Shown: piece by piece, positions 26,394-64,000 of the stretch | Layout: every line of letters begins with the position of its first letter | How positions within the stretch are numbered: position 1 is the first letter of the stretch | Assembly (NCBI GenBank): GCA_013239625.1 | Contig: MU053859.1 | Span: 62,001-126,000 of the forward strand | DNA from: Lama guanicoe | Lineage: Eukaryota | DNA length: 64,000 bases | Reading direction: 5' to 3' | The notes under the pieces: generated by a model | What the model was told of the DNA's origin: nothing | Databases searched by the model: none | What the model saw: the letters and a program-made list of their open reading frames with translations, nothing else | Translations under genes and position numbers: made by a program

Positions 26394-26457
26394 ATGACTT
26401 CTGAAGACTGTTCCATAATGGAGACCAGCTCCTTGCATCTGAATAAAGAACGACAAA
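26394..26457 (+). CDS. CD69: CD69 exon 1 coding part (cytoplasmic N-terminus)
   Basis: aagATGact start; MTSEDCSIMETSSLHLNKERQ; phase-1 donor A|gtaagt at 26458. Confidence 0.93.
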
Positions 26458-29400: not shown

Positions 29401-32400
29401 TTTCCTGTTGATGAATATTTGGGTTATTTCTAGAATTTGGCTATTAAGAATAAAGCTTCTATGAACATTCTTGTATAAAACAATTTGAAGACATATTTTT
29501 ATTTTATTGAGAAAATACACAGGAGCAGAATTGCTGGGTCAGAGAGTAGGTGCAATATCTAATTATGTAAGAAACAGTTTTCCAAATATTTTTTTCCATT
29601 TTACTCTCCCATTCAGTAACATATGGAAATTTCAATTGCTTCACATCTGCACTAGTACTTCATGAGTAAGTACTATCAATCTATCTTTTATTTTCAGTCA
29701 TGCCAATTGTGTATGTTTTTATAACCATTCAACATTTTTCACTACATTACCCACATTTATACCACCTGCCTTAAACAGCAACTACAGAGAAGAGACTGTA
29801 CTTAAGATGTTCTTTTTATATGTCATCTAGAGTAATCAGATATTTACTCAATGTTCTTATTATGATTAAAACAATAAAATTATGATATGTTTAGAATTTT
29901 CATTGCTGCTGAGTTCATATATTGGGGAACTTATTATTATGTCTGGATTACTTCATTTCTAGCCAAATTATCCAACTTCACTCAAAATTTGAGGGAAATT
30001 AACATAACTTTTGTATAAGAAGATGGGGAGACACATAGCTTTTTTTTTTTAATTTTAAATGCCTCAAAGGAAAACCAAATGTCTCTACCTTCCCTCTATA
30101 GCGTGTCTGAACTTATCATCCACTTTCTCTCTTCAGGTGATGCCCCCAGGCCTCATTTTGCAACTCATCACGAAGGGTCCATTCAAGTTCCTATCCCGTG
30201 TGCCGTCCTGAATGTGGTCTTCATCACCGTTTTAATCATAGCTCTCGTTGCTTTATCAGGTAGGTCTGCGCTTTGTGAATTCATCACAAACTCTGATTAA
30301 TTTAGGATCATCTCACATATTGTACATGGCCACTTCCCTCGTCCATACTAAATATGACTCCACATTCTTTGGATAATTAATGCAATACTTTATTTGAGTT
30401 TTCTAGAGCTTCTTTATAAGGATTTAAAATGTCTACAATTTATACATTACTGTGGGAGAAAATTACATTTGGGCAGATGTTTAAATCTAAAACAAAAAGG
30501 GCTGATTTAGATTCTAAATAAATGAACATATACACGGACAAAATGTGGGCGGATGAAAAAATAACACCAAAGCCATAGATTAGTCAGGAATTGGCCAGTC
30601 TCTTATCTCAAAAAGCACAGAAGAGTAGGTATGGATAATTAAGAATATGTCTAGAAGCTCCCAGACAGTCAGTTGCAATATGGTATTTGAAACATACAGC
30701 TATGCCAAGATACATCTGTGTCTTGTACAAACATGAATTTATACAATTGTAGGAGCATCCCCAAGCCGCAGATTGTTGTCTTCTGAATTACTTCTCTGCA
30801 AAGCAGTCTCGCCTCCACCTCCCAGTATGGGGTTATATCTTCCACATCTTCAAAGTCTTCCACCTCTGCATTCAGATGCAAAACTGTACTTGGAATTTAC
30901 AATGTACTTTGCCCTTTCTAGCCTAAAGACTGTTTTCAAGATTTTTCAATTTTCCAACCACTCTCTGATCACAGTGACTCTCTCTTATTTCTCATACCCT
31001 GTACAATGATGATTAGGCACAATGAGAGATCAGATAAGGTGAGAAACTGCCCTCTTCTTACTCTTCCCAGAATTCACCTCCTTTTTAATAATAATTTTAA
31101 ATGGAATATAACCTGTAAGAATTTTGAACCACTATGCTGTACACCTGAAATTCACATGACAGTGTAACTCAAATATACTTCAATTAAAAATAAAAAAAGA
31201 ATTCGTCTTCTTTCCTTTTATCCTTTACTGTATCACCTAGCACAGCAGAGCATCCCTGAACTGGTTTTGTACACTTTGGGTATTCGGTTTCTTGTGTTAC
31301 TAAAACAAACCGTTTTCCTGTTCACAGTGGGCCAGTACAATTGTCCAGGCCAATATATGTCCCCAGTGCCATCAAACAGCCATGCTTCCTCATGCTCAGA
31401 TGACTGGATCCAGTACCAGAGGAGATACTATCTTATTTCCAAGAAAACAAGGAACTGGACCTTGGCCCAAGAATTCTGCTCCAAACACGGTGCTACACTT
31501 GCTCTCATTGACTCTGAAGAGGACATGGTAAGATAGTATTCAAAAACAATTCCATAAGATACTGCTCTTCTATTTTATCTGGCTCATCTGTGGCTTCCTT
31601 CTGTTTCCTTCTAAGTGAAGACATTGTATCTGTCTCCCACATAGAAAAGTTTAGTCACAGAAAGCCACATGATCAGTCAGAGGTCAAAATGAGACTTCAC
31701 CTTAGTCTTTAAATGTGATTTGACTGTTTCGCTTCAAAGGCGAGAAATCCCAATGAGCTAACCTACAGAGAACTGACAAACGATGGGCTTAGCGCTCATG
31801 CCTCGATTGCAGCTTTTGAGAAACAGGATTTATTACACACTCACAAGGAGCGGTGATGTAACGTAGACTTCCTCTGTGCTTTCTTCAAGATCTTTTTAAA
31901 ACAACACGTGGGTAGAGCAGAACACTGGATTGGGCTGAAAAATGAAGCTGGCCAGACATGGAAATGGTCAAACGGCAAAGAATTTAACAACTGGTGAGTT
32001 TCAAGATAATCTTTTTATCCTCTCCAGGCTGGCAGTTTAAGGGAACCACTTTCCTTTTTTTTTTTTTTTTTTCCTTTTCAAAGCACAGTTCTCTACGAAG
32101 GTTGTGCTCTTTATAAAGCAGAATTTATAAAATCTCCCTTGTATATTATGCTCCATGGAATTCTTTAAAGAAAGGCTTTAATATTGTCTTGTTTTTTTCC
32201 TTTTATCTACTTGGAATTCATACAGTAAATCCTAGTAATCTGATATCAGCAAATTCTAGCGTGAGTAATAACACTCAGTTAGAAATGTTCCAGGAATAAT
32301 TATGATGATGTGAAAAAAATCCAACATTTCCAATATCATATGCATATTTCATTGATAAGCTAGTTTGGGGTGGTTAAGCCCTTTTTCCTCTTTCCCAGTT

Positions 32401-33193
32401 CTCATCTCCACAGGGATAAAGAACAATATTTTCAATACCTAATTAGAAGCTTCTGTGGAGCTGAGAGAAAATTTGCCCCAGAATTAAAGATACTGACTTT
32501 ATTTTCATTACATATAATTAAACTACATTGTAGACTTTGAAGAACTTAAATTTAGTGTTAATCTTTGTCACCTGAAAACTCAAACTTGAATAAATTTCTA
32601 GCTATCAAAATGTTTTATGATAATCAGTGATACAGACAATTAGTTTAAATCTTTAGAAAAGGAATTCTTAATATGTGTCCAATGGTACCTCACCCACAGA
32701 TGGGCTTCAGGGGTTATTAACCCCCTAAAATTGGAGGCACTATTATGTGTGATTGTTGAACGTGTATACCTTCTGGAAATTGTTTCTCGAAAGTTTTGGA
32801 AAATCAGAAATAACCAAGAGTGAATCCTCCAGTGACGCATCACCCAAATGAATGGAGCTCTTAACTCCTAACTTTCTATCTGTTCCCTACGTGCTACTGC
32901 TTCAGTCCTTGTCTGCTGTCTCTACAGACTGTCTATGATCATTTAACGGGTACGCTTGCCTCATGCATTCTGACTAAGAAAAAAAAAAAGCAGAAGCCTC
33001 CCCCACCACCACCACAAAGTTTATTCTTGTATAACTGAACGGAAACGAACTGAAAATCATTCTAGTTTCCTTACTGTTTGATAGGTTCAACCTGACGGGC
33101 TCGGAGAACTGTGCATTTCTGAACAGCACAGAGGTCGGCAGCGCCGCGTGCGAGAAGAATCTACACTGGATTTGCAGCAAGCCCGCCAAATGA
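26394..33193 (+). CDS. CD69: CD69 early activation antigen (CLEC2C), complete 5-exon gene: join(26394..26457,30137..30259,31328..31527,31890..31993,33085..33193), 199 aa
   Basis: Manual splice reconstruction with GT-AG introns gives 600 nt: MTSEDCSIMETSSLHLNKERQSDAPRPHFATHHEGSIQVPIPCAVLNVVFITVLIIALVALSVGQYNCPGQYMSPVPSNSHASSCSDDWIQYQRRYYLISKKTRNWTLAQEFCSKHGATLALIDSEEDMIFLKQHVGRAEHWIGLKNEAGQTWKWSNGKEFNNWFNLTGSENCAFLNSTEVGSAACEKNLHWICSKPAK*. This is colinear with human CD69 as I recall it (HEGS, VGQYNCPGQY, WIGL, WICxKP). Confidence 0.97.
29010..29715 (-). mobile_element. Old L1 3' fragment in CD69 intron 1
   Basis: ttgtttatccattttcctgttgatgaatatttgggttatttc; gaattgctgggtca. Confidence 0.75.
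30137..30259 (+). CDS. CD69: CD69 exon 2 (juxtamembrane and transmembrane)
   Basis: ctctcttcag| acceptor; DAPRPHFATHHEGSIQVPIPCAVLNVVFITVLIIALVALS; donor G|gtaggt; 123 nt. Confidence 0.96.
31086..31197 (+). mobile_element. Short L1 3' tip in CD69 intron 2
   Basis: ctatgctgtacacctgaaa...tatacttcaattaaaa; degenerate TSD agaattcacctcctt / agaattcgtcttctt. Confidence 0.7.
31328..31527 (+). CDS. CD69: CD69 exon 3 (stalk with Cys68 and start of the C-type lectin-like domain, CTLD)
   Basis: ttcacag| acceptor; VGQYNCPGQY...LIDSEEDM; donor |gtaaga; 200 nt. Confidence 0.96.
31890..31993 (+). CDS. CD69: CD69 exon 4 (CTLD, WIGL motif)
   Basis: ttcttcaag| acceptor; IFLKQHVGRAEHWIGLKNEAGQTWKWSNGKEFNN; donor TG|gtgagt; 104 nt. 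Confidence 0.96.
33085..33193 (+). CDS. CD69: CD69 exon 5 coding part (CTLD C-terminus)
   Basis: tttgatag| acceptor; FNLTGSENCAFLNSTEVGSAACEKNLHWICSKPAK; TGA at 33191-33193. Confidence 0.96.
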
Positions 33194-34225: not shown

Positions 34226-35616
34226 GGGTTTCTAAGAAGTGTTCATTCCTTTAAATACACTAAAAATTATAGCTCATACTGAAATGCAGGAAACAGAAGG
34301 TTGTAACTTTTTTTAAAAAACTGTGTCTGTAGTAAAACTTGAACATTATAACATGGTTTGGACCTTTTAAGTTGTTTTCAGTTGTGTGTTTTCAAAGCGC
34401 TCTTTCCATTTTTCTGCATACAGCACTTGCTCATTAAATATATTAATTGACTTGAGAGGACTTTATGTCATTTAAAATTTTTTGACTCTATTATTTTCTT
34501 CCTTTTTTAAATTGCTTGTCACCCTGAAGGGGTACAGAGAAATTAGGAGACACCTAAAGTCACTTTGCAAGGATTTATTTATAAGCTGGTCCTCTCTCTC
34601 AAAAGAAGATAATTTTAAAAGAAGATAATAGCAGAGAATATGTAGGTGCTACGAAGATATCGCAGACAGCCTACTTTATTTGGCCCTGTATTCAAACATT
34701 AAACTATCGGTTATCTGTTTTATTTGACTTTTCCAATATAATTTCAATTTCTTCCTCTGGAAAGGGAGAGTTTGCCCTCAATTTTCAAAATGTTGACTAG
34801 GTTTTCACACATGAAAATCTATCATAACTAAGATTAACATGCTAATAAAATTCTAGAGAAAATGTTGGAGGATCTATGCCCAGAAAGACTGTTGGTGATC
34901 ATATAAGTAGGCTTAGCTCAACCTTTGGAAAACAGTTTGAAAATACTCATCAAAAACTTTGAAAAGATTCATATCTTTCCTTTGATGTGAACATTTTTTT
35001 GTGGAGGGAGAGCATTAAAGAAATAATCTTGGATGTTTAAGACGTAACCACAAAAATGTTTATCCAAAGGGTATTTTTAGTAGTGATAAATCAGAAGCCA
35101 CTTAATGGTTCAAAACTAAGAATTAAGTTAAATAAGTTGTACTACATGATGAAATAATACGTTGTCACTGAAAAATAATAATGAAGAAGAATGTTTACAT
35201 ATATGGGAAACGACACAAAGTATTATTGCTAAGCGTCTTAAATATTAAATTTTATGTTTCTAAATTCTAAAAGAGATAAAAACTATTAAGGTAAGCACAG
35301 TGGTTTTCCCTGAGTAATAAGAGTATAGATATTTCTTTTTCCTCTCTATGCTTCTCTATAGTTTTGAAATTATGAATAGTTATTTTACTCTTAATAAGGA
35401 AATATTTATTTTAAACAAGCCTAAATATAGTATCATTAAGGAAATAATTTCATTATTTAAGTTACAATTCTACTTTCTAGTGATGAAATCCAGTCCCCTT
35501 CAAACTGAGCTCCCCTGTCTTGTTTACAATTAACTTTTCACTCCAAAACTTTATTCCCTTTCTTATCCTGCCCCTGTTTGCCTCAGGATTGAAGAGAATC
35601 AAAGAAAAGGGGAGAC

Positions 35617-36159
35617 TGAAACCAAGTAGGGCCCTGTGGGGTCTTCCCAGGTACACCAGCCCCTCTGTGTCCCCAGTTTCTTGTTTGTAGAAAAGGCTTT
35701 AATGTCCTTGGTCTTCCCAGAGGTCAAAGAGCGGGCTCAAGCAGCTAATGATTAGGGCAGGAGAGTCAGAGGACTCCTAGGTCCTCCTGAGGGGATAGAG
35801 ATAATCTGATGCCACTCCCCGCAGGTGGAGAATGGTGACTGCATGCTGACCACAAGCTTGTAGACCCCAGAGTGGATGGAATCAGAAGGCTGTGATTCCG
35901 GAAACACCACCCTGTAAGTTACCTCACCACCAACCAATCAGAAGACGGCCCACTAGCCCAGCACGCCTCCTACGAGCCGCTGCCCTAACGCTGACTTCAA
36001 ACCCCCTCGCCTGAAAGCATCGGAGTTCAGGGCTCCTGGGCCGACGCTGCCCTGTTTTCCTTGCTTGGTGCCCTGCAAATAGACCTTTACTTTCCTGCAA
36101 ACACTTGGTGTCAGTTTGGCTCTCTGCACTGTGAGCACATGAGTCCTTGCTCTGTAACA
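35617..36159 (+). mobile_element. ERV LTR (ERV1-like) preceded by a polypurine tract
   Basis: TGAAAC...GTAACA termini, CCAAT box (caaccaatcag ~35932), poly(A)-like aaataga ~36077, upstream aaagaaaaggggagac. Confidence 0.75.
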
Positions 36160-39025: not shown

Positions 39026-40071
39026 TTAAAAGGTAAATTAGCAAGTGTAAAATCTCTTATGAGTGCATGGGTTTAGTTGACAAAATATAAATTTCTGCTC
39101 AGTTTCTTACAATGATCAATTTTTAAATGATAAGAAATCAAAGGTACTATTTTAGCTCTAACTAACTCTCAAGTTCTCTGGAGAGTGGTTTTGAGAAATA
39201 AAACTGAAGGTGGGAAGAATTGCTTTACCCATCATATTTCTGCATGTTGCTGAAATTGTTTTAATGGTATATTTTCATTAAAATTTGGATAATATTTTCT
39301 GAGGTCCTTTTTAATCTCTGGACAGATGGATATTTTCATGGCTGATGTAAAGGTTTCTTTCTATAGGTTTTCAATAGAAGAAAATAAACTACAGACCTGA
39401 AGTATGAGATGCGCCCTGGTGTCTTATATTGAGATAGTTGAATGCAATTGTGAGAACAACAGGCAGTGGATTTGTTGGCTGTAACCCACTCTGCAGAAGA
39501 TGGGTCTCTAGTTCCCTGACTGAAACCCAGGAAGTTTGGGTTCAGATCAGAGGAAAGTTCAGAGGGTCGAATGTGTCAACCCTGGACGGCTGTGTGCACT
39601 ATGTGTGAGTGTGTGTGTCCATTCATGATTCATGTGGGGATAGTACTATTTCTCAGAAGTGTGGGAAGGGGGATAGACAAAAATTAAACATTTTAGAAAA
39701 CGAATAGATTTGATGAATAGATTTTTACATCTGAATTATCAATGCAGTTATTGCATCATTGTCTCATTTTGCCAGCATTTTTGGAACTTCAGTCTTTATC
39801 TTTTCTACATCTTCCTTCTACACTATCCTTAGCTTATCTCTTACATTCTCACAATTTCAACTACCACAGACAAAGCAATGCATAGCAAAGTTCTATCTCT
39901 AGTCCAGATCGTTCCCTGATCACCAGACCTGTATGTCTTATTGCCTCCTTAACATCAAATCTAAAATCTCAAAGGCACTTCAAACTCAACGTAGAAAAAT
40001 AAGTCATTACATTTCATCATAAAAGGAACCGTCTTCCAGTACGCCATGTCTCGGTAAGAGATATGCCATAT

Positions 40072-42769: not shown

Positions 42770-44095
42770 GAAAAATTAGACGAGGAAAAGAAATAAAAGG
42801 CATCCAACTTGGACAAAGAAGAAGTAAAATTCTCTTTATTGTTAGATGATATGGTATGTACAGAAAACCCTGAAGACTCCACCAAAAGACTGTGAAGACT
42901 GATAAATGAATTCAGTAAAGTGGCAGGATACAAAATCAATATACCGAAATCTGTTGCATTTTTATACACTAATAATAACCTATTAGAAAGAGAAGTTAAG
43001 AAAACAGTTGCATTTACAGTTGCATCATAAAGAATAAAATACCTAGGAATAAATTTAACCAAGGAGCTGAAAAACCTGTACACTGAAAATTACAAGACAT
43101 CGATGAAAGAAATGAAAAAACACAAATAAATGGAAAGATAATCGAGGCTCATGGATTGGAAGAATGAGTATCGCTAACACCTCACACCTGTTAGAAAGGC
43201 TATTATCAAAAAGATAAGAAGTAAGAAGTGTAGGAAAGGATGTGGAGAAAAACCACCCCGTGTGCATTAGTGATGGGAATGTAAATTATTGCAGCCATTA
43301 TGGAAAACAGGAGAGAAGTTCCTCAAAAAGTTAAAAATAGAGCTACGATATGATACAGCAATTCCACTCCTGGGTATTTATCCAAGAAAATGAAAACACT
43401 AACCTCAAAAGATAGGATATATGCACCCCCATATTCACTGCAGTATTATTTACAATAGCCAAGATATGGAAGCAACCTAAGTGTCCATTGATGGATGAAC
43501 AGATAAAGAAAATGTGAGATATATATATATGGATATATATATATATATCTATATATATAGTAGTAGAATATAATTCAGCCATAAAAAAGAATGAAATTTT
43601 GTTATTTGCCACAACATGCATGGACCTTGAGAGCATTATGCTACATAAAATAAATCAGACAAATAAAGTCAAATATGATCTCACTTATATGTGGAAAATT
43701 AAAAATTAACAAACAAACTCCTGGATACAGAGATCACATTGATGGTTACCAACCAGAAGCCAGGGAACAGGTGGTGGAAGGTGGGCAAAATGAGTAAACA
43801 AAATCAGAGGTACAAGCTTCCAGTTATAAAATAAATAAATCTGGTGGATGTAATGTACAGCATAGCAACTACAGGTAAAAACACTATATTGTATATTTGA
43901 AAGTTGCTAAGAGAGGAGATCTTAACATTTCTCATCACAAGACAAAATATTTTGTAACCGTGTGATGACAGATGTTAACTACACATACTGTGGTGATTAT
44001 TTCACAGAATATACAAATGACAAATCTTTATGTTGGTACACTTAAAATTAATATAATGGTGTATGTCAGTACACCTCAATTTAAAACAAAGAAAA
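42770..44095 (+). mobile_element. L1 ORF2/3' UTR with an internal deletion near 43175
   Basis: gaaataaaaggcatccaa...gaattcagtaaagtggcaggatacaaaatcaat, jump to cacctcacacctgttaga, then typical 3' UTR. Confidence 0.88.
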
Positions 44096-45170
44096 GAAAA
44101 TTAAACAATCAGTAACTGACTTACCCACTATAGCTTACTGATGAGGAAGGAAAAAGAAAAATAAATGCAATTAATAGATACCATACAAGAAGCTTAGGGA
44201 GTAAGAGAGATTTAACTTAAGAAAACTCTGATATCGGGAGAAGCAAACCGATGTGGAGACTAGAGGGTGATAGCATGAGCCAAGTTGTTTTCAGAGCTAG
44301 GTGACGCATTGTGGTCTCTGGGAATTCCCAAAAATTACAGGAGGGAAATATCTGTGGACGTTTTCGAGACTGGAGGCGGGAGGGGGACAGAGAGGAGGTT
44401 TCCAGGTCCCCGCAACCCCACTGTCTACTAGTCTTGGTGAAACAAAACCTGTATCAAGAAACTGTGAAAACTGGAATATCTGAGGATTCACAGTGAAGCC
44501 CAGACGGTGCAGCGGAGGAACAAGTGTTTCAACATGAGTTTCTGTTCTCCTGTCCTTTACTGCACAATGTTTCATAGACCCAGTCCATGTCGCTGTACGT
44601 GCTATATTGTATTTACAATGTTAGTGTCTGCCATCGTGGAGGCATATTACATTAATCTGAGTGACGATCAACACTTTACATCCCCATTTGTTTATTTTTG
44701 GACATATTGTTTGTTACTAATCTTTTGTACCATAAACAGAGCTGAAATTAAAACAAAAAATGAGTTTATTAATTATCAGTTTCATGTTTCCTAATATAAA
44801 TGAAAAGAGATTTGAAGAAAAAAACTGATTTGACTTTATAGACTGACTCCTGAGTCTGTCAGATAAAAAAAAGGTCTTAAAATTACCATTAGAATAGGAT
44901 CTGCTAAATCAAATTTTATTAATCTAATCTCAAGTACTGTATTTACCGAATGTATGTTTGTTGAATGGGTAGAGGAATAAAATAAAAGTATGGAAGGGAT
45001 CTGGCTTTTACAGAACCCCATGGGTGATAACTGCTCAGTAGCAATGTGATTTTTTTTGTTAGAAAACTATTGAGTAAACATATATGAAATATCTAGTGGA
45101 AAAAATTTAAAATTAACAAAATTTGCAGCTCTGAAGAAATTTTCATTTAGCTGGATTACTAGTAAATTCT

Positions 45171-47460
45171 TTTTCTTTTTTTTCTGTTTTTTTAAATTAA
45201 AAAAATTTTTTTAAACTTTTGTTATTGAGCTATAGTCATTTTACAATGTTGTGCCACATTCCAGTGTAGAGCACAATTTTCAATTATACATGAACATATA
45301 TATATTCATTGTCACCTTTTTTTCTCTGTGAGCTACCGTAAGATCTTGTATATATTTCCCTGTGCTATACAGTATAATCTTGTTTATCTATTCTACATTT
45401 TGAAATTCCAGTCTATCCCTTCCCAACCCCTGCCCCCTTGGCAACCACAAGTTTGTATGCTATGTCTATGAGTCTGTTTCTGTTTTGTATTTATGCTTTG
45501 TTTGTTTGTTTGTTTGTTTTTAGATTCCNNNNNNNNNNNNNNNNNNNNNNNNNNNNNNNNNNNNNNNNNNNNNNNNNNNNNNNNNNNNNNNNNNNNNNNN
45601 NNNNNNNNNNNNNNNNNNNNNNNNNNNNNNNNNNNNNNNNNNNNNNNNNNNNNNNNNNNNNNNNNNNNNNNNNNNNNNNNNNNNNNNNNNNNNNNNNNNN
45701 NNNNNNNNNNNNNNNNNNNNNNNNNNNNNNNNNNNNNNNNNNNNNNNNNNNNNNNNNNNNNNNNNNNNNNNNNNNNNNNNNNNNNNNNNNNNNNNNNNNN
45801 NNNNNNNNNNNNNNNNNNNNNNNNNNNNNNNNNNNNNNNNNNNNNNNNNNNNNNNNNNNNNNNNNNNNNNNNNNNNNNNNNNNNNNNNNNNNNNNNNNNN
45901 NNNNNNNNNNNNNNNNNNNNNNNNNNNNNNNNNNNNNNNNNNNNNNNNNNNNNNNNNNNNNNNNNNNNNNNNNNNNNNNNNNNNNNNNNNNNNNNNNNNN
46001 NNNNNNNNNNNNNNNNNNNNNNNNNNNNNNNNNNNNNNNNNNNNNNNNNNNNNNNNNNNNNNNNNNNNNNNNNNNNNNNNNNNNNNNNNNNNNNNNNNNN
46101 NNNNNNNNNNNNNNNNNNNNNNNNNNNNNNNNNNNNNNNNNNNNNNNNNNNNNNNNNNNNNNNNNNNNNNNNNNNNNNNNNNNNNNNNNNNNNNNNNNNN
46201 NNNNNNNNNNNNNNNNNNGTAATTGGATAGGGATTGCATTAAATCTGTAGATTGCCTTGGGCAGTGTGACCATTTTAACAATATTGATTCTTCCAATCCA
46301 AGAGCATGGGATATCTTTCCATTTTTTTAAAGTCTTCCTTAATTTCCTTCATCAATGGTTTATAATTTTCTGTGTATAATTCTTTCACCTCCTTGGTTAG
46401 ATTTATTCCTAGGTATTTTGTTACTTTGGGTACTATTTTAAAGGGGTTGTTTCTTTACTTTCTTTTCCTGTTGATTCATTGTTAGTGTAAAGAAATGCAA
46501 CTGATTTTTGTATGTTAATCTTGTAACCTGCTACCTTGCTGAATTCTTCGATTATTTCTAGTAGTTTTTGTGTGGACCTTTCAGGGTTTTCTATATATAG
46601 TAACATGTCATCGACATATAGTGACACTTTTACCTCTTCTTTACCCTTTTATTTCTCTCTCTTGCCTGATTGCTGTGGCTAGGACTTCCAAGCCTATGTT
46701 GAATAGGAGTGGTGATAGTTGGCATCCTTGTCTTGTCCCAGATTTTAGTGGGAAGCTTTTGAGTTTTTCACCGTTGAGAACTATGCTGGCTGTAGGTTTG
46801 TCATATATAGCTTTTATGATGTTGAGATATGTTCCCTCTATACCCACTTTGGTGAGAATTTTTATCATAAATGGGTGTTGAATTTTATCAAATGCTTTTT
46901 CTGCATCTATTGAGATGATCATGTGGTTTTTGTCCTTTCTCTTGTTGATGTGGTGTATTAAATTGATTGATTTGCATATGTTGAACCACCTTGTGTCCCT
47001 GGGATGAACCCTACTTGATCATGATGTATAATCTTTTTAATGTGCTGTTGGATTCTACTTGCTAATATTTTGGTAAGGATTTTGGTGTCTATGTTCATCA
47101 GTGATATTGGTCTGTAATTCCCCTTTTTGGTGGTGTCTTTGCCTGATTTTAGTATCAGAGTGATGGTGGCTTCATAGAATGAGTTTGGGAGTATTCCCTC
47201 CTTTTCAATCTTCTGGAAGAGTTTGAGAAGGACTGATATGAGTTCTTCTTTGTATGTTTGGTAGAATTCCCGTGAAGCCATCCAGTCCTGGACTTTCATT
47301 TGTAGGGAGGTTTTTTTCATTGCTAATTCAATTTCATTTTCTAGTGATCAGTTTGTTCAATTGGTCAGTTTCTTCTTGATTCAGTCTTGGTGGACTGTAA
47401 GTTTCCAGAAACTTGTCCATCTCCTCTAGGTTATCCATTTTGGTTCCATACAGTTTTTTT
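45171..47460 (-). mobile_element. Young 5'-truncated L1 (ORF2 RT region and 3' UTR), spanning the assembly gap
   Basis: Frameshifted ORF2 peptides ([43 protein letters not shown]); T-rich tail at left; probable TSD gtaaattct at 45162-45170 and 47461-47469. Confidence 0.95.
45529..46218. other. Assembly gap (690 N)
   Basis: Run of n. Confidence 1.
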
Positions 47461-49162: not shown

Positions 49163-50734
49163 AATAATCACGCTTTTCTCTCAGTACTGGCTACCTGAAA
49201 GCTCAAAGTTTATTCAATATTTAATAATCACAAGTTAGCTAAATATAAAAATAAATATATAAATAATAGCAAGTTTGCTTAACTTTACAGCTTCGAATTC
49301 GTTGATCCTGATAATGAATATTTCTCCAAGAGTATATATTTTTGCAAATCAACTCAAACACTTTTAAAATAAATTTTGGTAGATATAAATGTGGGTTTTA
49401 GTTCATTTTATTTCATGTTTTTAAAGCACACCTAGGACCTACGCCAGTGTTCATACGTTAAACATCAGGCAAGATACTTAAGAAAGACTTAGTTTAGGAT
49501 GCCTACTTATGAAACAATTTTTGTGTTGAGGAGATGAAAAACTCTAATTGGTCAGTTCAGTTTATGTGCATATCCCTTAGTCAATGTGGCAGGAAGGGGA
49601 CCCAAGATATGACAGTCCCAGGGGGTCCAGATTAGGTTCGGGAGAGAATTTTTCCCAGAGGAAAATTAAAATTCTGGAAGCTATTTCCAGAATAGCTGTG
49701 AAAAATGCCTGTGAAAAAACAAGAAAGAAAAATAGATACAGAGAGACGTGAGAGAAATGGCTTCGAATACCGTGCATGAAAAATTACTGTGTAGCAAAGA
49801 GTAACAATTCCTCTTTCTCATCCACAGTGACAGGAACAGCTGAAAGCAGGATGTGGGATTTGGAGGAAAGTTCCTAATGTGAAAGAAACGTGCTAAATGT
49901 ATTTTTCAAAAACTTGGACAAAATTTTTAAGGCTTTGGGTTACATACCACACTTTTGACCTCAAATTTACTTCCTGTTCCGGAGAAAAGGAAGATGAAAA
50001 GAAAGCACAGATGCAAGAATCTTCTACTCTTACAAGAGGTGCATCATCATCTGGATCATTTTCAATTTCTAACATTATTTAGCACATCCCCTCAATATAA
50101 ACCTACACCTTAGCTAGGCACTCATTTTCCGTTAATTAAAAAAGACATTATTATTTTTGTTGTTGTTGTTATTGTTATTTTAATTAATCCACAAGGAAGA
50201 GGTTGTGGTCTTTGTCCAGGTCTGGGTTAGAAGAGCAATTGTTCCAGAGAAGGTAAGAAATTGTGCTCCATGAGTAGGTGGCAGAAGCACCTGCTCGCTC
50301 CAGGAAAAATAGAAGCCAGGTAGCAAAGGAAAACTGCAACCCTAAATGAAGGACCCAATTTGGTGGAAAGTTAATCGTATCCTGTGTCTCCAAAATGCAT
50401 ATTAGTGCCTGAATTTGGCAGCTCTAAGATATTGGTAGAAAAAGCTTCTGGAAAAGAAAAAGACCTTCACCTATCATAGCATTAGCCTAGAGTCAGGATA
50501 TGAAGAAGCTCCAGGTGATGAAAACAGCAAGAAGGACAAAAGAGCTGGTTACTTTCTTGTGCAGAATCCGAATATCCAGACCTTCCTCGCCATCAGTGTA
50601 AATTGCCTGGTGGGATGAGGGCAGCTGGCACAGACTCCCTTGTACAGACAGCACCCTCCCTGTCTTTCAGTGATGCAGGATTCATATGTTCCGTCTGTCC
50701 ATCTTCAATTATAGAAACAGAAGACTGGATTCTT

Positions 50735-55109: not shown

Positions 55110-55900
55110 TTCATTCATTCATCAGACACTGGCTCTAGCACTTTGATTCAGGTCAGTTACTATGTGGTGATACAGAGGTGAATGTATTGATTTCCTTCCA
55201 TCTTGGATCTCGTAGTCCCTTAGAGGAGACAAACATGAACAAAGAGATGTAATTTAATACGGTAAGTTTTATAATACAGTTTGTGGACCCAAAATGGTAG
55301 TCTGAGATTGATGGGGAAGGAAACTAACCCTCCCAAAAGACTTAAAAGAGAAGGTTGTGGGTTTTTGTTTGTTGGGTTGTAAGTTTGTTGAGCTGGGGAG
55401 ACAAGAAGAAGAGGACACATCAGGTGGAGATCTTGGCCTGTCCTCAGGCAGAGGTGAGAGAGAACAAGAGTATTTGAAAAATAAGGGAAAGTTCAGTATG
55501 AAAAGAAGAGAGAGAGAGGAACTGGATACTGTACGTTGACATTTGAAATTGTAAGTCATTCTATGGAGCTTAATTTTTATCCTGGAGATAACAGAAGAAA
55601 AAATTCAGCAGTGAGGCTTATGAATAGAGATGTGTTCTAGAAAAAAACCAGATGTGAGAGTAACATGAAGTTTGAATTGAAAGAAAGGGAAGAGATTGGA
55701 CTGGAGGAAAAGCGATTGGTTAAGAGGCCATCATGCATGTCTGGCTGAGGGGTAATAAGGGACTCAAATATTTAGAAAAATTGAGGAGGGAGAGAAGAAA
55801 ACAAATTAGAGAGACTGATGCATAATTATGACCAATCTTATTTGTGGGTAAAAGGATTCCACAAGTTGGATATGAGTCCCTGTTTTCTGGTTTGAATATT
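55110..55900. mobile_element. L2 fragment
   Basis: tcattcattcatcagacac terminus and purine-rich L2-like body. Confidence 0.5.
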
Positions 55901-57084: not shown

Positions 57085-57449
57085 GAGACTGGCTCCCGAA
57101 ATAATTGTTTGGAAGCTGCAAAACAATATTCATACAGTCAAAAGCGCAACATACAAAATTAGAGACAACTCTATACCTTATAGTCCACCTTTAAAAAATG
57201 TTAACCTGTTGCTTTTTGTCTGCCTCTCAAGGAGATGCCTTTGGAATACAGGCTGCCACGTGTTCATCCTCACTTATGCCGGGTAACCTTAGGCAGTTAC
57301 AATCATCTTAGCACGATGCTAATAGCACAACACTTTTGTTATGTTTGTTGCTGAACTTGAGGTCTGCTTCCTATATCTGGAAGTAAAAGTTCCGCCTATG
57401 AGAAGGCTTGTGGCAGCCCTCCTGACTAGCGAGAGGCCAGAGGGGAGAG

Positions 57450-57680: not shown

Positions 57681-57994
57681 TTCTGTTATTGTTATTGTTA
57701 GTTATTGTTATTACTGCTACTACTACTACTAAAGCAAAATCATGTTCTTTCCCTGAAGTCTAAGTTGCTGTTTAACCCCCAGATCTTTCCCGTTGGACCT
57801 GTAGTGGTCAAATTAACTAAGAGTTTTGGTAGGTCATGGTGATGACCTGAAGACTCAATCAATCTGTTGGCTTCATAAACCACTGAACCTCACTTCCTTT
57901 CTACCAAATGCAACCGTCAGAAGAATCATGTCAGTCACCCACCACCTGCAGAAGCTCCACAAAGTGCAGTGAGAGAGAATGAGTTTTGGAAGCA

Positions 57995-58165
57995 ATGCGC
58001 CAAAAAGGAAGGCGCTAGGTGCGCGGTCAGACCTCCGGGCGGTCAGCGCCTCCATGGTCTGCGGACTAGCGCGCCGTTCCCACTGCGGGTCGCCGGGACG
58101 CGGTCCTCGCGCTGCGGGCTGTCTTCCTTCCTCTGCCGAAGTAAATCCAGGAAGTGGGCAGGGAC
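57995..58165. promoter_or_regulatory. Small CpG-rich island just upstream of the CLEC2-like start codon
   Basis: Dense CpGs (gcgcggtcagacctccgggcggtcagcgcc...gcgggtcgccgggacgcgg) in an otherwise CpG-poor window; ETS CAGGAAGT near 58148. Confidence 0.65.
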
Positions 58166-58217
58166 CTAGAATCCCGTGTGTTCTCTCCAGTTTGTGTTTT
58201 CTTACTTAGAAGGAGAC

Positions 58218-58266
58218 ATGGATAATCAGAGAAGGCCGATGAATGCAGGAGATTCCCAGTCTTCAG
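58218..58266 (+). CDS. CLEC2-like gene coding exon 1 (cytoplasmic)
   Basis: Strong Kozak context gacATGg; MDNQRRPMNAGDSQSS; phase-1 donor G|gtaaga compatible with the next exon. Confidence 0.7.
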
Positions 58267-61200
58267 GTAAGAAGCACGGGTCTGAGGGCGCTGGGTGCTC
58301 TGTGTGTAGGAAACAGACTTGCATTTGGTGAGTCCCTGCTCTCGGTTTTGAGAGTCAGTGCCTCACATTCTTCATCTTTTTTCTTATCCATGTCAAATGA
58401 CTTCCAGCTAAGTATCCGAGGGAGCTTAAAAACAGTATAAATAAATCCATACCGTGTGAATAAAAGCTGCCTGATTTTTGAACTATTTTAATACCTTCAT
58501 TTAGATAAAATTGACATACATTTAGGGGGGAGGGTAGAGCTCAGTGATAGAGCACATGCTTAGCAAGCACGAGGTCCTGGGTTCAATCCCCAGTACTTCC
58601 ATTTTTAAAACAATAATAAATAAATAAATCTAATTATTCCTCCCCCCAATTTTAAAAAAAAATAAAATACACATATTTAAAGTATGCAACTTGATAAATT
58701 TTGACATGCATGATGTACACCCATGAAACCACAAAGACATTCAAGATGATGAACATATCCATCAATACCAAGTGTTTTCTAATACCTCATTATAGTATTT
58801 TTCTATTGCCACTTTCAGCATGCCCTCCTTGATTCAACCACAGGTCAGCTTCCAGTCACTATAGACAGACTTGCATTTTCTGGAATTTTATATCGATGGA
58901 ATCATGCAATATATAATCATTTCTCTTTGGCCTCTTTTATTTAGCATAATTATTTTAAAATTCTTTCCTGTTGTTGTAGGTATCAATAGGTCATTTCATT
59001 TTTATTGCTGACTGCTAGTCCCTCATATAGATATACCATAGTCTATTTATTTTTTCAGCCATTAATGAATATTTGAATTGTTTCTAGTTTGGGATTACTA
59101 CAAAATAAGCCTCTATAAAAACGTGTGCACCAGCCTTTGTATGGACACACTCTTCCATTTCTTTTGGGGAAATACCTATGAACAGAATGGGCAAATCATA
59201 TAGTAGGTGTATATTTAACTTTTTAAGAAATGTCTGCACTGCCTCCCATAATGGTTGTGCCCTTTACATTTCCACTGACAATGGTTGAGACTCCCAGGTC
59301 TTCCATATTCTCACCAACACTTAGTATGGTCAGACGTTCTAATTTTACTAATTCTAATAGGTAGGTAGTAGCTCCTAAATCTGGTTTTAATTTGCATTTG
59401 CTTTATAATTATTGATGACGAGCATCTTTTGATGTCAAATTTGCCTTCTATATAACTTACTTCATGAAGTGCCTGTTACACCCTGTTGGTCACATGTTTT
59501 GTTGTGTTGTTTGTTTTCTTATGAAGTATTGAGAGTTCTTTATGTATTCTGGACACAAGACTTTTATCAGACATCAAACTTGCAAATATTTCTCCAGGCT
59601 CTGGCTTGTCTTTTCATTTTGTTAAAACTGTCTTTTGAAGAGCCTAAGTTATTAATTTTTACAAGTCCAATTTATTACTTTTAATAGACCATGTTTTGGG
59701 GGCTGGATTGAAGAAATCTTTCTCTAATCCAAAATAACGAAGAATTTTTCCCATGTTTTTTTCTAAAAATGTTATAGTTTGAAGTATTACATTTATTTCT
59801 ATGATCCTTTTTGAATTAATTTTTATATATGGAATGTGGTGTGGATCAAAATCTTTTTTTGTACATGGATTCCAATTCTTCCAGTACTGTTTATCAAAAT
59901 GACTATTCTTTTTGGCCTCTCTCTGGTCTCCACACATGTTGGGTCTATTTCCAGACTATTTGTCTATTTTTCATACCAGTACCATGCTATGTTGACAACT
60001 GTGGCTTTATAATAAATCTTAAAACCCAGTAATGTTTGTCCTCAAACTTAGTTCTTTTTTGAAACTGGCTATTCTAATTCCTTTGCATTTTAATATGAAT
60101 TTTAGAAATAGCTTGCCTATTTCTACCAAAAAAGCCTGCTGAGAATTTTGTTTGGGATTGTGATGAATCTGGGTAGAACAGACATCGTAACAGTATTTTG
60201 TCTTCTGACTCCTGGGAACAGTATCTCTCCATTTATTTATGTCTTCAGTTTCAACAATGTTTTGTAGTCTTTAGTGTACATGTTTTATATATCTTTTTTC
60301 AGATTTATCCACAAGTATTTAATATTTTATGCTACTATAAATGGTATATTTTAATTTCCTATTGATAAATGCAAGTATATAGAAATATGGTTGGTTTATA
60401 TATATTGATCTTGAATCTTACAACACTCTAAGCTCACTTATTAGTAATGAAGAGCTGATTTAATTTTTCTATAGGAGATGTTATCTCTTCCAACCTTACC
60501 ATAGAGTCACACGAACCCCCAAAAGGGAATAAAAAGAAACCTTGTGTCTATAAAATCATCGCTATCGTCATCTTCCTGGTGATCCTGATAATTACACTGG
60601 CCACAGTTTTAGCAGGTGAGTTGAGTTGTCCATTTCCCAAATATGTTCATGTTAACCCTCCTCTAAAATATTTGGTCATACATGTATGTTTCATACTTCA
60701 GCTGAAGACTAAGGATAATTTCAGACATCTTTGTACATGGCATAAGCATATGATTCTTCTTCTATAACATGAAGATTATAGCATTCCTAAATACTATGAA
60801 GAAAAAAACTAACTTAATGTATATGAAATTCCTTTTAAGCCAGTGTCGCTTATAGTCCTTACGAGGTAAGGAACTTGTGGTAAAATGTAAATCCCCACAC
60901 TGCTTTTTTCATCCAAAGGGTCTTATTATGGGAAAAAACAACAAAAAACAGAAGAAACAGACAGCATATTTGGCGACATAGTTAGTTAACAACGAACTAT
61001 GAGGGTCTATCTCGCTGTGGACTGGCAGCAGGCAGTGTGTGGAACAGTGTCTAGCAGTGGACTGACTACTTTGAAAATTGAGTTCAATAATGTATATGAA
61101 ATTCCTTTTAAGCCAGTGTCACTTACAGTCCTTACGAGGTAAGGAACTTGTGGTAAAATGTGAATCACCACACTGCTTTTTTCATCCAAAGGGTCTTATT

Positions 61201-63483
61201 ATGGGAAAAAAAAAAAACAGAAGAAACAGACAGCATATCTGGCGACATAGTTAGTTAACAATGTACTATGAGGTTCTATCTCGCTGTGGACTGGCGGCAG
61301 GCACTGTGTGGAACAGTGTCTAGCAGTGGACTGACTACTTTGAAAATTGAGTTCAAGGTGCACAACATTTGATTTCTCTCTGATTGTGTGACTTGCAATG
61401 ATGAGGTCAAATTTCCAAGCTGTCCTCATAATTCACAAGCGTAGGGATGAGTTATAGGGAATTAGACAAGAAAAAAGTGTTCCTGTCTTAATAACCAACT
61501 TTTTTACACTAGATTACCTTTAGGTTCTAAAAACAGCCTTGTACACATCTCCTTCATGATAGTAAACTATGGACATACCTTCTACAGATAGCTCAAATTA
61601 TTTTAATAAGATGTTTGAAAATATATATAAGTATGTATGTGTATAGATGCACATGTATAAATGTTATATGATTTAGACATCAATGTTTTATAAATGTGTA
61701 TAAAATATGTACATGTGTAAAGTAATTTATAGAAATTAATGTGCCTACATATTATGTAGACACATATACATAAATGTACATATACATATAAATGAATTTG
61801 TATGGTGTAGACATATTAATCAAGCTTATTCTATGAACTATGCATTAGGAGATACATGAATACATTATATCTGTGATTATACTGTCTATATCAACTTAAT
61901 AATATCAGTACATACATGATAGTCAACACCATGAAAATGAGGGTCCAAACCCTTTGGGTTGAAGGGCTAACCTGGTGAATTGTATTCATGGGGATAATTG
62001 TTTTAAGTTAAGGGATTGCCACCCCCCAGGGAATTAATCTATTATTCGATCGTTTTTAGTTGAAAAGCACAAATCTTCCACGGAACACGTGTCATGCTTG
62101 GATGGCTGGATTGGCTACCTAGGAAAGTGCTTCTATTTTTCTGAAAATACAACCACCTGGGCAGCAAGTCAGAACTTCTGTGCCGCTCACGCTGCAAACC
62201 TCGCTGTGTTCAACACCACCAAAGAGCTGGTGAGGCAATGCTTTGGAACTGTGGTTGTGTTTACAGAGGTTACAGCTGATGGGAGAGTGGAAATGGTCCA
62301 AAGAAGACCCTCTCACGAAGCAGAGGAGGCCCCACTTTCCATGTCAGCTTAAACCATAGAAAGAACTCACATCAGGTCAGATCACATTCATGTCACAGGT
62401 CAGGTCAGATCAAATCATGGTACGAGTTATCAGGCAACATTCAGGAGATGACTTTCCCCACTTGACTTTTCAACTGGGGGTAGGTGTATTTAGAAACAAG
62501 GCATACACTAGGCCTTTTCCCTAAGCCCTACATAAAGCTATTTAAATACTGCTGCCCACTAGAATGACCCCAACTGTTCTTCAAAGATGTTCAGCCACAT
62601 AATTACCCAGCTGTACATTTTCAAGAGAAATTACGGCTCCCAACCCCAGGGAAAGTCCAAAATCACAGTTCAGAATTGAGAAGTTCTAACAAAGCCCCCA
62701 GTCATGATTAACAGTTGTTCATCTACTAAGTTCATGCTAAATGAAAGTTGCCTTTTGTGAGACTACATGAAAGAAATAATAAACAGAGAGTCATAGCAGA
62801 CTGTTTGTCAGAGATGCTGGGAAGAATTAATAAATGAGTCATTATAGCCAAGACGATCTGGGAGCTCTGGGGCACAGAAAAGAGTGAATAGAAAACCTTA
62901 AATGTATACAATACAAATTGCCCAAAACAGAAATAATTGAGACGTAGAATGTCAGAGATGGTAAGAGACAGAAAGGTTAAGACTAAGGAGCATAAGGGTA
63001 TATTTATTATTTATAGAAAACGTACTCTACCAGGAATGGGCAGAAGAGAGATTCTCCCATCCTAAAAGGCACCAAACCTAGAAAGATTTACTGACAAGTT
63101 TAATCGCGCTTTCACAGAAAAAAAAAAAAAACTTCTGTTTTACAAAAACTTCTTTAGAAAACAGAAAAGAGAGGAAGCTAACCAATGCAATTTACTACAG
63201 AAGTTGTTACCGAAGTAACACAACCCCTGACCTTACCATGAACCAGATAGTCACCTTTAAGATCTTTCCCAAGTCTGAAAGTCTGCACTTTAATAAAAGT
63301 ATATTGAAGTAGACTGAAAAAAAAAAACCCAAGAGAATGAGGGCTTTGCTATTCATTCTGTAAATATTCTATATTAAAGAATTTCCTGAAGCGATATTCT
63401 GACCATTCTCAGTATTGGATTGGACTGAGGCGAAAACCAGGGCAGACTTGGCAGTGGATAGATGGGACCGTATACAGTGGTTG
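58218..63483 (+). CDS. CD69-like / CLEC2-family type II C-type lectin-like gene, 3'-partial: join(58218..58266,60475..60615,62060..62229,63380..63483); last exon beyond window
   Basis: Open spliced frame with GT-AG introns and intron phases 1,1,0,2 as in CD69: MDNQRRPMNAGDSQSSGDVISSNLTIESHEPPKGNKKKPCVYKIIAIVIFLVILIITLATVLAVEKHKSSTEHVSCLDGWIGYLGKCFYFSENTTTWAASQNFCAAHAANLAVFNTTKELNFLKRYSDHSQYWIGLRRKPGQTWQWIDGTVYSG(W). It has CxxxWIGYxxKCFYFS, FLKRY and WIGL motifs and one TM helix. Confidence 0.88.
58525..58630 (+). mobile_element. tRNA-derived SINE (camelid Vic-type by recollection)
   Basis: gggggagggtagagctcagtgatagagc (A box) ... gtcctgggttcaatccccagtac (B box), then A-rich tail. Confidence 0.85.
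58670..60445 (-). mobile_element. Old antisense L1 filling most of the first coding intron of the CLEC2-like gene
   Basis: L1 3' UTR/ORF2 antisense motifs (gttttaatttgcattt, gaattttagaaatagcttg, cagatttatcc). Confidence 0.8.
60475..60615 (+). CDS. CLEC2-like gene coding exon 2 (transmembrane)
   Basis: tttttctatag| acceptor; basic KKK then hydrophobic IIAIVIFLVILIITLATVLA; donor G|gtgagt; 141 nt. Confidence 0.88.
60815..61356. repeat. Direct tandem duplication of ~270 bp (copies 60815-61087 and 61088-61356)
   Basis: Both copies begin taatgtatatgaaattccttttaagccagtgtc and end ttgaaaattgagttcaa, with scattered substitutions and small indels. Confidence 0.95.
62060..62229 (+). CDS. CLEC2-like gene coding exon 3 (short stalk and CTLD start)
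   Basis: tttttag| acceptor; SCLDGWIGYLGKCFYFSE...SQNFC; donor |gtgagg; 170 nt. Confidence 0.93.
63380..63483 (+). CDS. CLEC2-like gene coding exon 4 (CTLD, WIGL)
   Basis: ttaaag| acceptor; NFLKRYSDHSQYWIGLRRKPGQTWQWIDG; donor TG|gtaagt; 104 nt, same length as CD69 exon 4. Confidence 0.93.
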
Positions 63484-64000
63484 GTAAGTCCTGGGTATAT
63501 AATTTACACACCTAAAGCTGGGGCTCAGAGCCTTTCCCACCATGGAGAGATCTGAGTTATAATCCACATCCACCGTTCTCCTGGAAACTTCCTTTGTGGT
63601 GGAGAATAAAATGAGCTCAGAGAAAAAGTCATACTGCAAGTTGTAATACAAATGATTTAATGTCTGTCATCTTCCAAAGGTGATGCTTCAACATGATTAT
63701 ATCATCTAACCTCCACAGCAGCTGTGAGGGGTGCATAGATTTACCTCTGTTTTACAGATGAAAAAAATCGGCGTTCAAAGATGTTGAATAATTAGATTAT
63801 CTTAGAATAATCTGCCCTTCTCCATCATATAGGGTATTGTTGTTTTGAGTTTATAAAGCTACCTTTTTAGGGCAACAAAACATACGAATTCAGTTTGCTT
63901 TATGTCCAAACAATGTGGTGTTGGGTTAGAGTAAAATCTCACACCAGAGGAAATTTTTTCTCTAGCCATTCCCATCAGTATCCATTCATTCTGTGCCCCC

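Follow-up and report, generated by a model that had tools for sequence, protein, structure and literature searches.

The locus downstream of CD69 in 64,000 nucleotides of guanaco DNA (the window, meaning the whole stretch analysed) raises the question of what the next C-type lectin-like gene is, and what its product might bind. An earlier note on this DNA considered the gene an unnamed member of the CLEC2 family and perhaps one half of a receptor–ligand pair. Here, the gene with exons at 58218-63483 on the plus strand is called the CLEC2 paralogue, and its structure, family placement and candidate partners are considered in turn.

Gene structure and setting

The CLEC2 paralogue is a real, intact gene. 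Its four spliceable, stop-free exons, as first described, give 154 open codons, with GT-AG introns and canonical splice sites throughout (Table 1). The likeness to CD69 also stands, as CD69 in the window shows the same phases (1,1,0,2) and a 104-nt exon 4. A query with exon 3 retrieved 28 proteins among 34 candidates at 73-95% identity (best E 1e-28), far beyond chance. Exon 5 is absent from the 64-kb window and is expected beyond position 64000; it is intact in the alpaca RefSeq model XP_072810869.1 ('CLEC2A-like', 195 aa), which is identical to the CLEC2 paralogue at 152 of 154 residues, and is known solely from such orthologous database models. Four exons seen here and a fifth from the alpaca model, with CD69-type phases, stand beside a CLEC2 family rule of five coding exons (PMC4041007). 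The strong acceptor at 58209/58210 suggests that the ATG exon is internal, with one or more untranslated exons upstream. In one alpaca model the upstream exon (donor ~58102) lies within the small CpG island, a putative promoter; a wild-camel model uses a different one at ~57198-57282.

Table 1. Features of the CD69 to CLEC2 paralogue interval, in window coordinates
Feature	Position	Strand	Description
CD69	26394-33193	+	Five coding exons of 64/123/200/104/109 nt, phases 1,1,0,2; 199 aa; synteny anchor
CLECL1 relic, last exon	39367-39484	+	Acceptor, in-frame stop at 39398, terminal stop
Small CpG island	57900..58200	+	GC 0.54-0.64; CpG observed/expected 0.63-0.99
Exon 1 as spliced unit	58210..58266	+	Strong acceptor before 58210; matches residues 1-17 of alpaca P0033
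Exon 1, coding	58218-58266	+	49 nt, phase 1; ATG at 58218; cytoplasmic tail
Exon 2	60475-60615	+	141 nt, phase 1; remaining tail, basic juxtamembrane patch, uncharged transmembrane helix
Tandem duplication, intron 2	60815..61356	+	~270 bp; copies 91-95% identical; no coding effect seen
Exon 3	62060-62229	+	170 nt, phase 0; three Cys
Exon 4	63380-63483	+	104 nt, phase 2; FLKRY dimer helix, WIGL core

The position directly downstream of CD69 holds in the sense that no other intact gene intervenes, but the two are separated by a CLECL1 relic exon that was missed earlier. The relic is 60% identical to residues 183-222 of pig P0190 (E 1e-9; profile E 2e-10), and no further CLECL1 exons were found in the window. 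Its discovery by profile search overturned the reading that CLECL1 had left no trace. The CLEC2 paralogue does not take the place of CLECL1 beside CD69 and actually lies beyond the CLECL1 locus. That it is not CLECL1 itself is borne out by this separate relic and by the separate clade that CLECL1 forms. CLECL1 is a full, ITIM-bearing NKRP1-like receptor in most mammals, with orthologues of 210-240 aa and the ITIM consensus in 20 of 21. A place within the NK complex, among KLRB and KLRF genes as for other CLEC2 members, is supported by CD69 and the relic in the window and by the carnivore gene order, which in caniforms is CD69 - CLECL1 - CLEC2 paralogue - KLRF3 (opposite strand) - CLEC2D - KLRB1.

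Family placement, distribution and names

All 19 orthologue rows in the tree, from camelids, horse, carnivores, bats, rabbit, rodents and afrotherians, fell into a separate clade with support of 100/100, and camelid CLEC2D grouped elsewhere, in a 100/99 clade. The CLEC2 paralogue belongs to a placental-wide CLEC2 orthogroup, distinct from CLEC2D, CLEC2A and CD69 and apparently also from the rodent Clr genes, and is related to CD69 and LLT1 as an ancient sister gene. Against human LLT1, camel CLEC2D scored 230 bits and the CLEC2 paralogue 133; the CLEC2 paralogue scored 123 against KACL and 115 against CD69. The suspicion that the gene differs from CLEC2D was therefore upheld by its own clade, by its lower LLT1 score and by the lack of a reciprocal best match; orthology with CLEC2D is excluded, as camelid CLEC2D is a different gene. 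Orthology with CLEC2A or CLEC2B was also rejected, as the ermine has all three genes at separate loci, CLEC2A and CLEC2B lying beyond KLRF1/KLRF2 on the opposite side of CD69; CLEC2B is set apart by its locus. Mouse Clec2g falls outside the clade and mouse Clr genes are 80-90% alike (PMC4041007), so an 'F-like' label is probably a mere best-hit name.

RefSeq models of the CLEC2 paralogue exist for dozens of mammals, and muroid rodents retain the gene. Among the best 120 matches there was no intact member from simians, pig, cattle, whales, dog, mouse or rat. The lack of an intact annotated simian counterpart there agrees with the proposal that the gene is absent or decayed in human, and humans appear to lack it. 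Decayed or truncated models occur in elephant, polar bear, yak and colugo, the dromedary has many aberrant isoform models, and the sea-lion model (179 aa) misses the final cysteine. A cluster atlas search gave generic CLEC2 clusters only, and the best 150 matches of a CLECL1-profile search of representatives were mostly multi-domain lectins, with no identifiable KLRF3 and no member of the CLEC2 paralogue clade.

The gene proved to be neither unnamed nor undescribed. In addition to the RefSeq models, a caniform 'CLEC2D-like' gene is placed tail-to-tail with KLRF3 in a carnivore survey (Futas et al. 2024, PMC11484026, Table S2). Its ermine (XM_032347220) and sea-lion (XM_027594242) accessions correspond to the orthologues P0051 and P0062, using accession offsets calibrated on same-species CLEC2D, and by accession it is the same gene. 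In the passages and tables analysed it stands as a locus of some carnivores, without placental-wide orthology, interface, expression or binding. In the same survey, carnivore 'CLEC2F' denotes CLECL1 in cat, by calibrated offset, and probably in bear, and equating it with the CLEC2 paralogue was dropped after these accession checks. For camels, KLRB1B has been proposed as the receptor of a 'CLEC2F' (Futas et al. 2019, PMC6614441), and one dromedary LOC105098233 isoform bears the NCBI name 'CLEC2 member F'; this camel gene is probably the CLEC2 paralogue. Database and survey names are thus misleading, with 'CLEC2A-like', 'CLEC2D-like' and 'CLEC2F' used interchangeably for the CLEC2 paralogue and CLECL1, a confusion that is now cleared.

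Predicted protein and closest relatives

The CLEC2 paralogue encodes a single lectin domain of the LLT1 type, a transmembrane helix without charged residues and a tail in which no tyrosine is conserved. A hydropathy peak at about residues 41-63 and a Lectin_C score of 47 bits (cut-off 22.6) agree with the type II membrane protein first proposed. A helix spans H60-86 in the predicted model of the Bactrian orthologue, and LLT1 is the best match to the predicted model (target TM 0.85-0.88; pLDDT 69). The FLxRY motif in helix alpha2, where FLkRy is a mark of the CLEC2 family (PMC3819593), is found in 29/29 orthologues. The L3 loop is short, as the protein aligns gap-free with LLT1 and KACL, and the domain has 112 residues, as in CLEC2D (CLECL1, 121-122). 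Domain cysteines 4 and 5 are often replaced in the CLEC2 family. Here, Cys5 is missing from 29/29 orthologues, and Cys4 is present in 22 of 23 in the main set and is Tyr in all six muroid and gopher rows. A cysteine within the 16 residues preceding the domain occurs in 6/29 orthologues versus 12/12 CLEC2D proteins. Over five lineages the lectin domain is 88.5% identical and the N-terminal part 61%, compared with 88.3% for the domain and 44% for the tail and transmembrane part of CLEC2D, a comparison that left out donkey, rousette and elephant rows first taken as CLEC2D, which belong to another paralogue group. A claim of exceptional conservation was dropped, as true CLEC2D orthologues are equally conserved.

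The closest solved relative is LLT1 (CLEC2D), the ligand in the pair with NKR-P1A (KLRB1). Both proteins align gap-free over residues 73-190, lack Cys5 and share FLxRY and WIGL. However, the domain is identical to that of alpaca CLEC2D at just 54 of 110 positions, CLEC2D lies on the opposite strand, and the CLEC2 paralogue lacks the stalk Cys. The pairs KACL (CLEC2A)/NKp65 (KLRF2) and AICL (CLEC2B)/NKp80 (KLRF1) also lie tail-to-tail with a KLRF gene and show patchy loss among carnivores, and KACL is likewise a non-disulfide dimer. Their loci, however, are separate and on the other side of CD69, KLRF3 has a transmembrane arginine and no hemITAM, and the CLEC2 paralogue scores 123 bits to KACL. 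CD69 (CLEC2C) shares strand, phases and exon 4 length, but its domain is identical at 38 of 110 positions and it has both Cys5 and a stalk Cys.

Three ligand residues, Tyr165, Arg175 and Tyr177, are conserved among the NKRP1:CLEC2 complexes with solved structures; across the three complexes, geometry is shared to a greater extent than residues (PMC9418145). Tyr165 is present in 29/29 orthologues of the CLEC2 paralogue, but Arg175 is replaced by Ser in 29/29 and Tyr177 by His in 28/29 (Arg in one); position 179 is acidic in 0/29 and Lys169 is kept in 0/29. CLEC2D keeps Arg175, Tyr177 and Glu179 in 12/12, and CD69 in the window also lacks equivalents of these three. Replacement of Arg175 and Tyr177 makes a canonical ligand less likely and does not lower the case for a protein that works like one. 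Half of a receptor–ligand pair, as the earlier note had it, is still plausible from linkage, although residues of known ligands are partly replaced.

Candidate partners and significance

The preferred reading, held at a probability of roughly 0.45, is that the CLEC2 paralogue is a putative dimer that would serve as ligand to its own linked receptor of the NKRP1 type, with KLRF3 the first candidate. A target tissue would display the protein at its surface as a homodimer formed through the FLKRY helix, proposed as non-covalent, as in KACL, because the stalk cysteine is missing. An NKRP1-family receptor on NK/T cells, dedicated to it and genetically linked, would engage it head-to-head; the likeliest candidate is its tail-to-tail neighbour KLRF3 and, in camels, possibly the gene called KLRB1B. 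The receptor-facing loop would have been re-fixed as Ser175, His177 and a hydrophobic residue 179, so that LLT1's site on KLRB1 would not be shared and a co-adapted partner is implied. Such a module would be dispensable and repeatedly lost.

In support of KLRF3, survey records place it tail-to-tail with the CLEC2 paralogue in ermine, bear, sea lion and elephant seal, the same arrangement as KLRF1/CLEC2B (PMC3819593). Further, the status of the two genes is concordant in 6/7 carnivores in Table S2 of PMC11484026, including the brown bear with two pseudogenes, where civet and wolf count through 'not listed' and cat through database felid models. Several species argue against it. The northern elephant seal keeps KLRF3 with a pseudogene of the CLEC2 paralogue, the northern fur seal has a CLEC2 paralogue of 196 aa and a non-functional KLRF3, and two foxes have functional KLRF3 with no canid match for the CLEC2 paralogue. 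Muroids keep the CLEC2 paralogue and KLRF genes are reported absent from mice; camels are reported to have two KLRF genes only, without KLRF3.

A CD69-like role without any NKRP1 receptor, either acting in cis through the transmembrane region or binding a soluble or matrix partner through its own lectin face, is rather unlikely. In its favour, CD69 itself, with the same loop residues missing, has no known NKRP1 partner and interacts in cis with S1P receptor 1 (PMC3819593), the tail and transmembrane part is better conserved than that of CLEC2D, and the gene persists in muroids and camelids, lineages from which candidate receptors are reported absent or deleted. Linkage has also misled once, as no binding was seen between BACL and the neighbouring KLRG2 (PMC3679072). 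Nevertheless, the protein is nearer to LLT1 and KACL than to CD69 by the domain identities above, a KLRF gene lies tail-to-tail, and both genes are pseudogenes in bear. Equally unlikely is the broader view of a placental-old CLEC2 lineage whose loop was re-fixed early, then held, and which works outside the NKRP1 rule. As a second protein of the CD69 type, it would use its conserved tail and transmembrane part to act in cis, or would meet a different kind of partner, and it would be retained though all neighbouring candidate receptors are gone in camelids and muroids; loss in humans and mice would explain why the lineage was never studied.

It is improbable that the camelid gene is a recently orphaned remnant, its frame open but selection gone. 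Dromedary models carry a Cys2-to-Tyr change, and in Bactrian and wild-camel models an almost invariant Leu is changed to Pro, a hint of relaxed constraint, which the aberrant dromedary isoforms, the decayed models elsewhere and the deletion of adjoining CLECL1 would fit. However, neither lesion is in the window copy, whose splice sites are all canonical, and the alpaca domain shares 90% identity with horse and 91% with fur seal, while its terminal branch in the tree is close to zero.

Slightly less probable still is that the CLEC2 paralogue serves its upstream neighbour CLECL1, which would leave the camelid gene an orphan with its receptor deleted. The two are direct neighbours, CLECL1 orthologues are full-length with an ITIM, and horse, felids, mustelids and fruit bats have both genes intact. 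The name that NCBI usually gives to CLECL1 orthologues suggests that camel KLRB1B may be CLECL1, in which case this would be the pair proposed in PMC6614441. But CLECL1 is intact with no intact CLEC2 paralogue match in pig, cattle, whales, hippo, lemurs and bears, and the reverse holds in this genome. Further, the 30 CLECL1 matches include none from camelids, rodents or rabbit, status is concordant in just 4/7 carnivores in Table S2 of PMC11484026, and the genes share a strand, with no tail-to-tail layout.

A second ligand of KLRB1 (CD161), redundant with LLT1, is very doubtful: LLT1 is the best match in sequence and fold and shares the missing Cys5, KLRB1 is found in nearly all carnivores and mouse NKR-P1F/G are promiscuous, but the LLT1 residues implicated by mutagenesis or structure (Lys169, Arg175, Tyr177, Glu179 and position 167) are all replaced, CLEC2D keeps three of them throughout, and the human pairs do not cross-react.

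The concept of linked pairs is already established, and the finding extends a known system and overturns nothing. If the pairing of the CLEC2 paralogue with KLRF3 is true, the NK complex of ancestral placentals would have contained it as a fourth linked receptor–ligand module, one that signals through a transmembrane arginine instead of a hemITAM and that humans and mice lost. It would also bring into veterinary, bat, hamster and ferret immunology a form of MHC-independent recognition that is invisible from the usual models.

Structure, probable transcripts and neighbourhood of the gene

The CLEC2-family paralogue downstream of CD69 is a real gene. The four spliceable, stop-free exons described in the earlier note were borne out: all introns are GT-AG, with phases 1, 1, 0 and 2, and 154 codons are open. 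Similarly, the CD69-like phases and 104-nt exon 4 recur identically in CD69 of the window (26394-33193; five coding exons).

Exons of the paralogue and the CLECL1 relic in the window
Feature	Position	Strand	Basis
Exon 1 (coding)	58218-58266	+	splice/ORF reading
Exon 2	60475-60615	+	splice/ORF reading
Exon 3	62060-62229	+	splice/ORF reading
Exon 4	63380-63483	+	splice/ORF reading
CLECL1 relic last exon	39367-39484	+	CLECL1 profile search; in-frame stop

In the encoded protein, a short tail and a basic patch are followed by an uncharged transmembrane stretch (residues ~41-63) and a Cys-free stalk; the part within the window ends after two thirds of the lectin-like domain. Exon 5, predicted to lie beyond 64000, is intact in alpaca model XP_072810869.1 (195 aa), while the guanaco exon falls outside the window; 152/154 residues match this model and 145/154 the Bactrian camel model. 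Untranslated exons further upstream are suggested by a splice acceptor at 58209/58210, just 5' of the ATG exon, and by a small CpG island (57900-58200); two database models have such exons. Two assembled contigs, 939 and 1151 bases long, carry orthologues at the full length of 196 residues, and the same run-assembly source also has the 195-residue Bactrian protein. Because the gene spans >5 kb, these orthologue records are most simply read as spliced transcripts. Intron 2 holds a tandem duplication of ~270 bp (60815-61356; copies 91-95% identical).

The gene is the next intact one after CD69, but the CLECL1 relic exon lies between the two, only 6 kb past the CD69 stop codon. With no other CLECL1 exon found in the 64-kb window by the profile search, CLECL1 has been largely deleted here. 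What we take to be LTR-like and L1-like pieces (35580-36150, 42780-44100, 45180-47450) fill the CD69-to-gene interval, and a 690-base N gap (45529-46218) sits inside a presumed L1-like element. Yak and elephant-like fused models show the order CD69, CLECL1, gene; any human counterpart is therefore expected between CLECL1 and CLEC2D. Non-coding stretches upstream of the gene (50454-50597, 55656-55715) resemble the mis-predicted N-terminus of bat model P0069; on this likeness the flank appears ancestral and may hold regulatory elements. CD69 exon 3 of the window (31417-31431, +) has Tyr in place of the expected second domain cysteine, as does yak model P0078; sheep models retain Cys.

Of 109 candidates in a search with the CLECL1 part, 30 proteins matched, and almost every one is a full-length receptor. 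They represent ruminants, pig, hippo, whales, horse, rhino, carnivores, bats, lemurs and manatee, and include no camelid protein. The ITIM consensus occurs in 20/21 aligned proteins, and several matches bear the name C-type lectin-like domain family 1. In most mammals sampled, CLECL1 (P0182-P0208) is a full-length NKRP1-like receptor with this consensus, labelled KLRB1B, KLRF1 or CLEC2F in the database. Unnamed look-alikes (P0351, P0384, P0388) suggest an older origin. No CLECL1 ligand was found in the literature covered.

Orthologues, losses and earlier names

Exon 3 alone retrieved 28 proteins among 34 candidates (73-95% identity). A profile from 18 of these found 480 proteins; among the best 120, full-length members score 235-396 bits, partial or fused members less, and CLEC2D-type proteins 161-188. 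A multi-domain Clr model at 248 bits is within the member range, yet not a member. Members among the matches listed come from camelids, horses, felids, mustelids, pinnipeds, many bats, rabbit, pika, squirrels, gopher, hamster, vole, gerbil, grass rat, golden mole and elephant shrew, under the automatic names CLEC2A-like, D-like, E-like, F-like and H-like.

In the phylogeny proposed earlier (lectin domain, 57 rows, 113 columns, many forks open), all 19 included members form one clade (support 100/100) on a long stem. The 12 CLEC2D rows, alpaca and dromedary CLEC2D included, form another (100/99), and a third group contains mouse Clec2g. Against human LLT1 (the CLEC2D product) the gene's protein scores 133 bits, versus 230 for the camel CLEC2D control, 123 for KACL (the CLEC2A product) and 115 for CD69. 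The suspected distinctness from CLEC2D thus holds. Over five shared lineages, lectin-domain identity is 88.5% (CLEC2D, 88.3%), so the gene is constrained like CLEC2D, not more; the N-terminal part reaches 61% versus 44%. The predicted structure (pLDDT 69 overall, ~80-87 in the domain) has LLT1 as first match. Muroid and gopher orthologues (P0027, P0071-P0073, P0075, P0180) are faster-evolving and, in addition, lack Cys4; P0026 (Acomys) seems to be a chimera in which exons 1-3 of the gene are followed by Clr exons. Rows labelled E form a further CLEC2 group (names D11-, E-, H-like), distinct from CLEC2D, spanning ungulates, whales, bats, lemurs and New World monkeys and including rodent Clr rows.

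The supposed absence or decay in human agrees with annotated proteins, the scope of the survey: the best 120 of 480 from the word-based search, with members read for 17 of the member clusters, include no intact clade member from simian, lemur, pig, ruminant, whale, dog, mouse or rat. In elephant, polar bear and colugo the models are decayed or truncated, and so is that of yak, where exons 4-5 form part of a fused model.

Contrary to the earlier note, the gene is not undescribed, being catalogued in RefSeq models and as carnivore 'CLEC2D-like'. The accessible part of PMC11484026 gives the order KLRB1, CLEC2D, KLRF3, 'CLEC2D-like', KLRB2 or 'CLEC2F', CD69 in ermine, bear, sea lion and elephant seal. 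Accession offsets in its Table S2, calibrated on CLEC2D of the same species, place the 'CLEC2D-like' entries of ermine and sea lion in the gene's clade and identify KLRB2 of ermine and 'CLEC2F' of cat as CLECL1; 'CLEC2F' of bear is also consistent with CLECL1, here with no calibration. Camel CLEC2F, a putative ligand of ITIM-bearing KLRB1B in the accessible part of PMC6614441, is probably the same gene, given the NCBI label on a dromedary isoform. The literature searched, largely open-access papers, yielded no functional study (background from parts of PMC4041007, PMC3819593, PMC3679072, PMC3972465, PMC9418145 and PMC13756075), so the gene is catalogued but functionally unstudied in the literature covered.

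Binding face and candidate receptors

Linkage favours a ligand role for the product, and we tentatively propose, at a probability of about 0.45, a dedicated linked receptor, KLRF3 or camel KLRB1B. In the accessible part of PMC11484026, the only paper searched in which KLRF3 occurs, KLRF genes are described as amplified, with CLEC2 genes for their presumed ligands close by, and KLRF3, in which a transmembrane arginine replaces the hemITAM, lies tail-to-tail with the gene in caniform carnivores. KLRF3 and the gene have the same status in 6/7 reference carnivores; for two of the six this is read from 'not listed' and for cat from felid models in the database, and the sea lion model is truncated. 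The known pair KLRF2/CLEC2A likewise agrees in 6/7 (bear ambiguous). Discordant species for KLRF3 and the gene are elephant seal, northern fur seal and possibly two foxes.

The protein has the short L3 loop of the CLEC2 family; FLxRY is present, and the fifth domain cysteine absent, in 29/29 orthologues. Only 6/29 carry a Cys within 16 residues before the domain (CLEC2D, 12/12), and the tail lacks a conserved tyrosine across the 29; from this we infer that the protein would dimerise non-covalently and signal little by itself.

Tyr165, Arg175 and Tyr177 are conserved ligand residues across solved NKRP1:CLEC2 complexes (PMC9418145, accessible part). The gene keeps Tyr165 (29/29), Ser129 (28/29) and Glu162 (23/29), with Ser at 175 (29/29), His at 177 (28/29), no acidic residue at 179 and Lys169 in none. 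In contrast, Arg175, Tyr177 and Glu179 are kept in 12/12 CLEC2D and in 13/16, 15/16 and 15/16 of the Clr-type group. CD69 of the window shares the absence of these loop residues, which lends something to a CD69-like role, unlikely as we judge it. That the gene is a remnant in camelids is less probable still: the Old World camel variants comprise dromedary models (P0003, P0030, P0040) with Tyr for the second domain cysteine and Bactrian/wild-camel models (P0002, P0029, P0031, P0044) with Pro at a nearly invariant Leu, but alpaca models carry neither change. CLECL1 is a poor candidate receptor, its status agreeing in only 4/7 reference carnivores against 6/7 for KLRF3 (PMC11484026, accessible part). 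KLRB1 is the least probable, as the LLT1-type Arg175, Tyr177 and Glu179 are replaced.

The binding face, as read from the alignments, is the strongest caution against a canonical ligand role. Yet the replacement of these residues is itself invariant, which points to a different, conserved partner for this protein.
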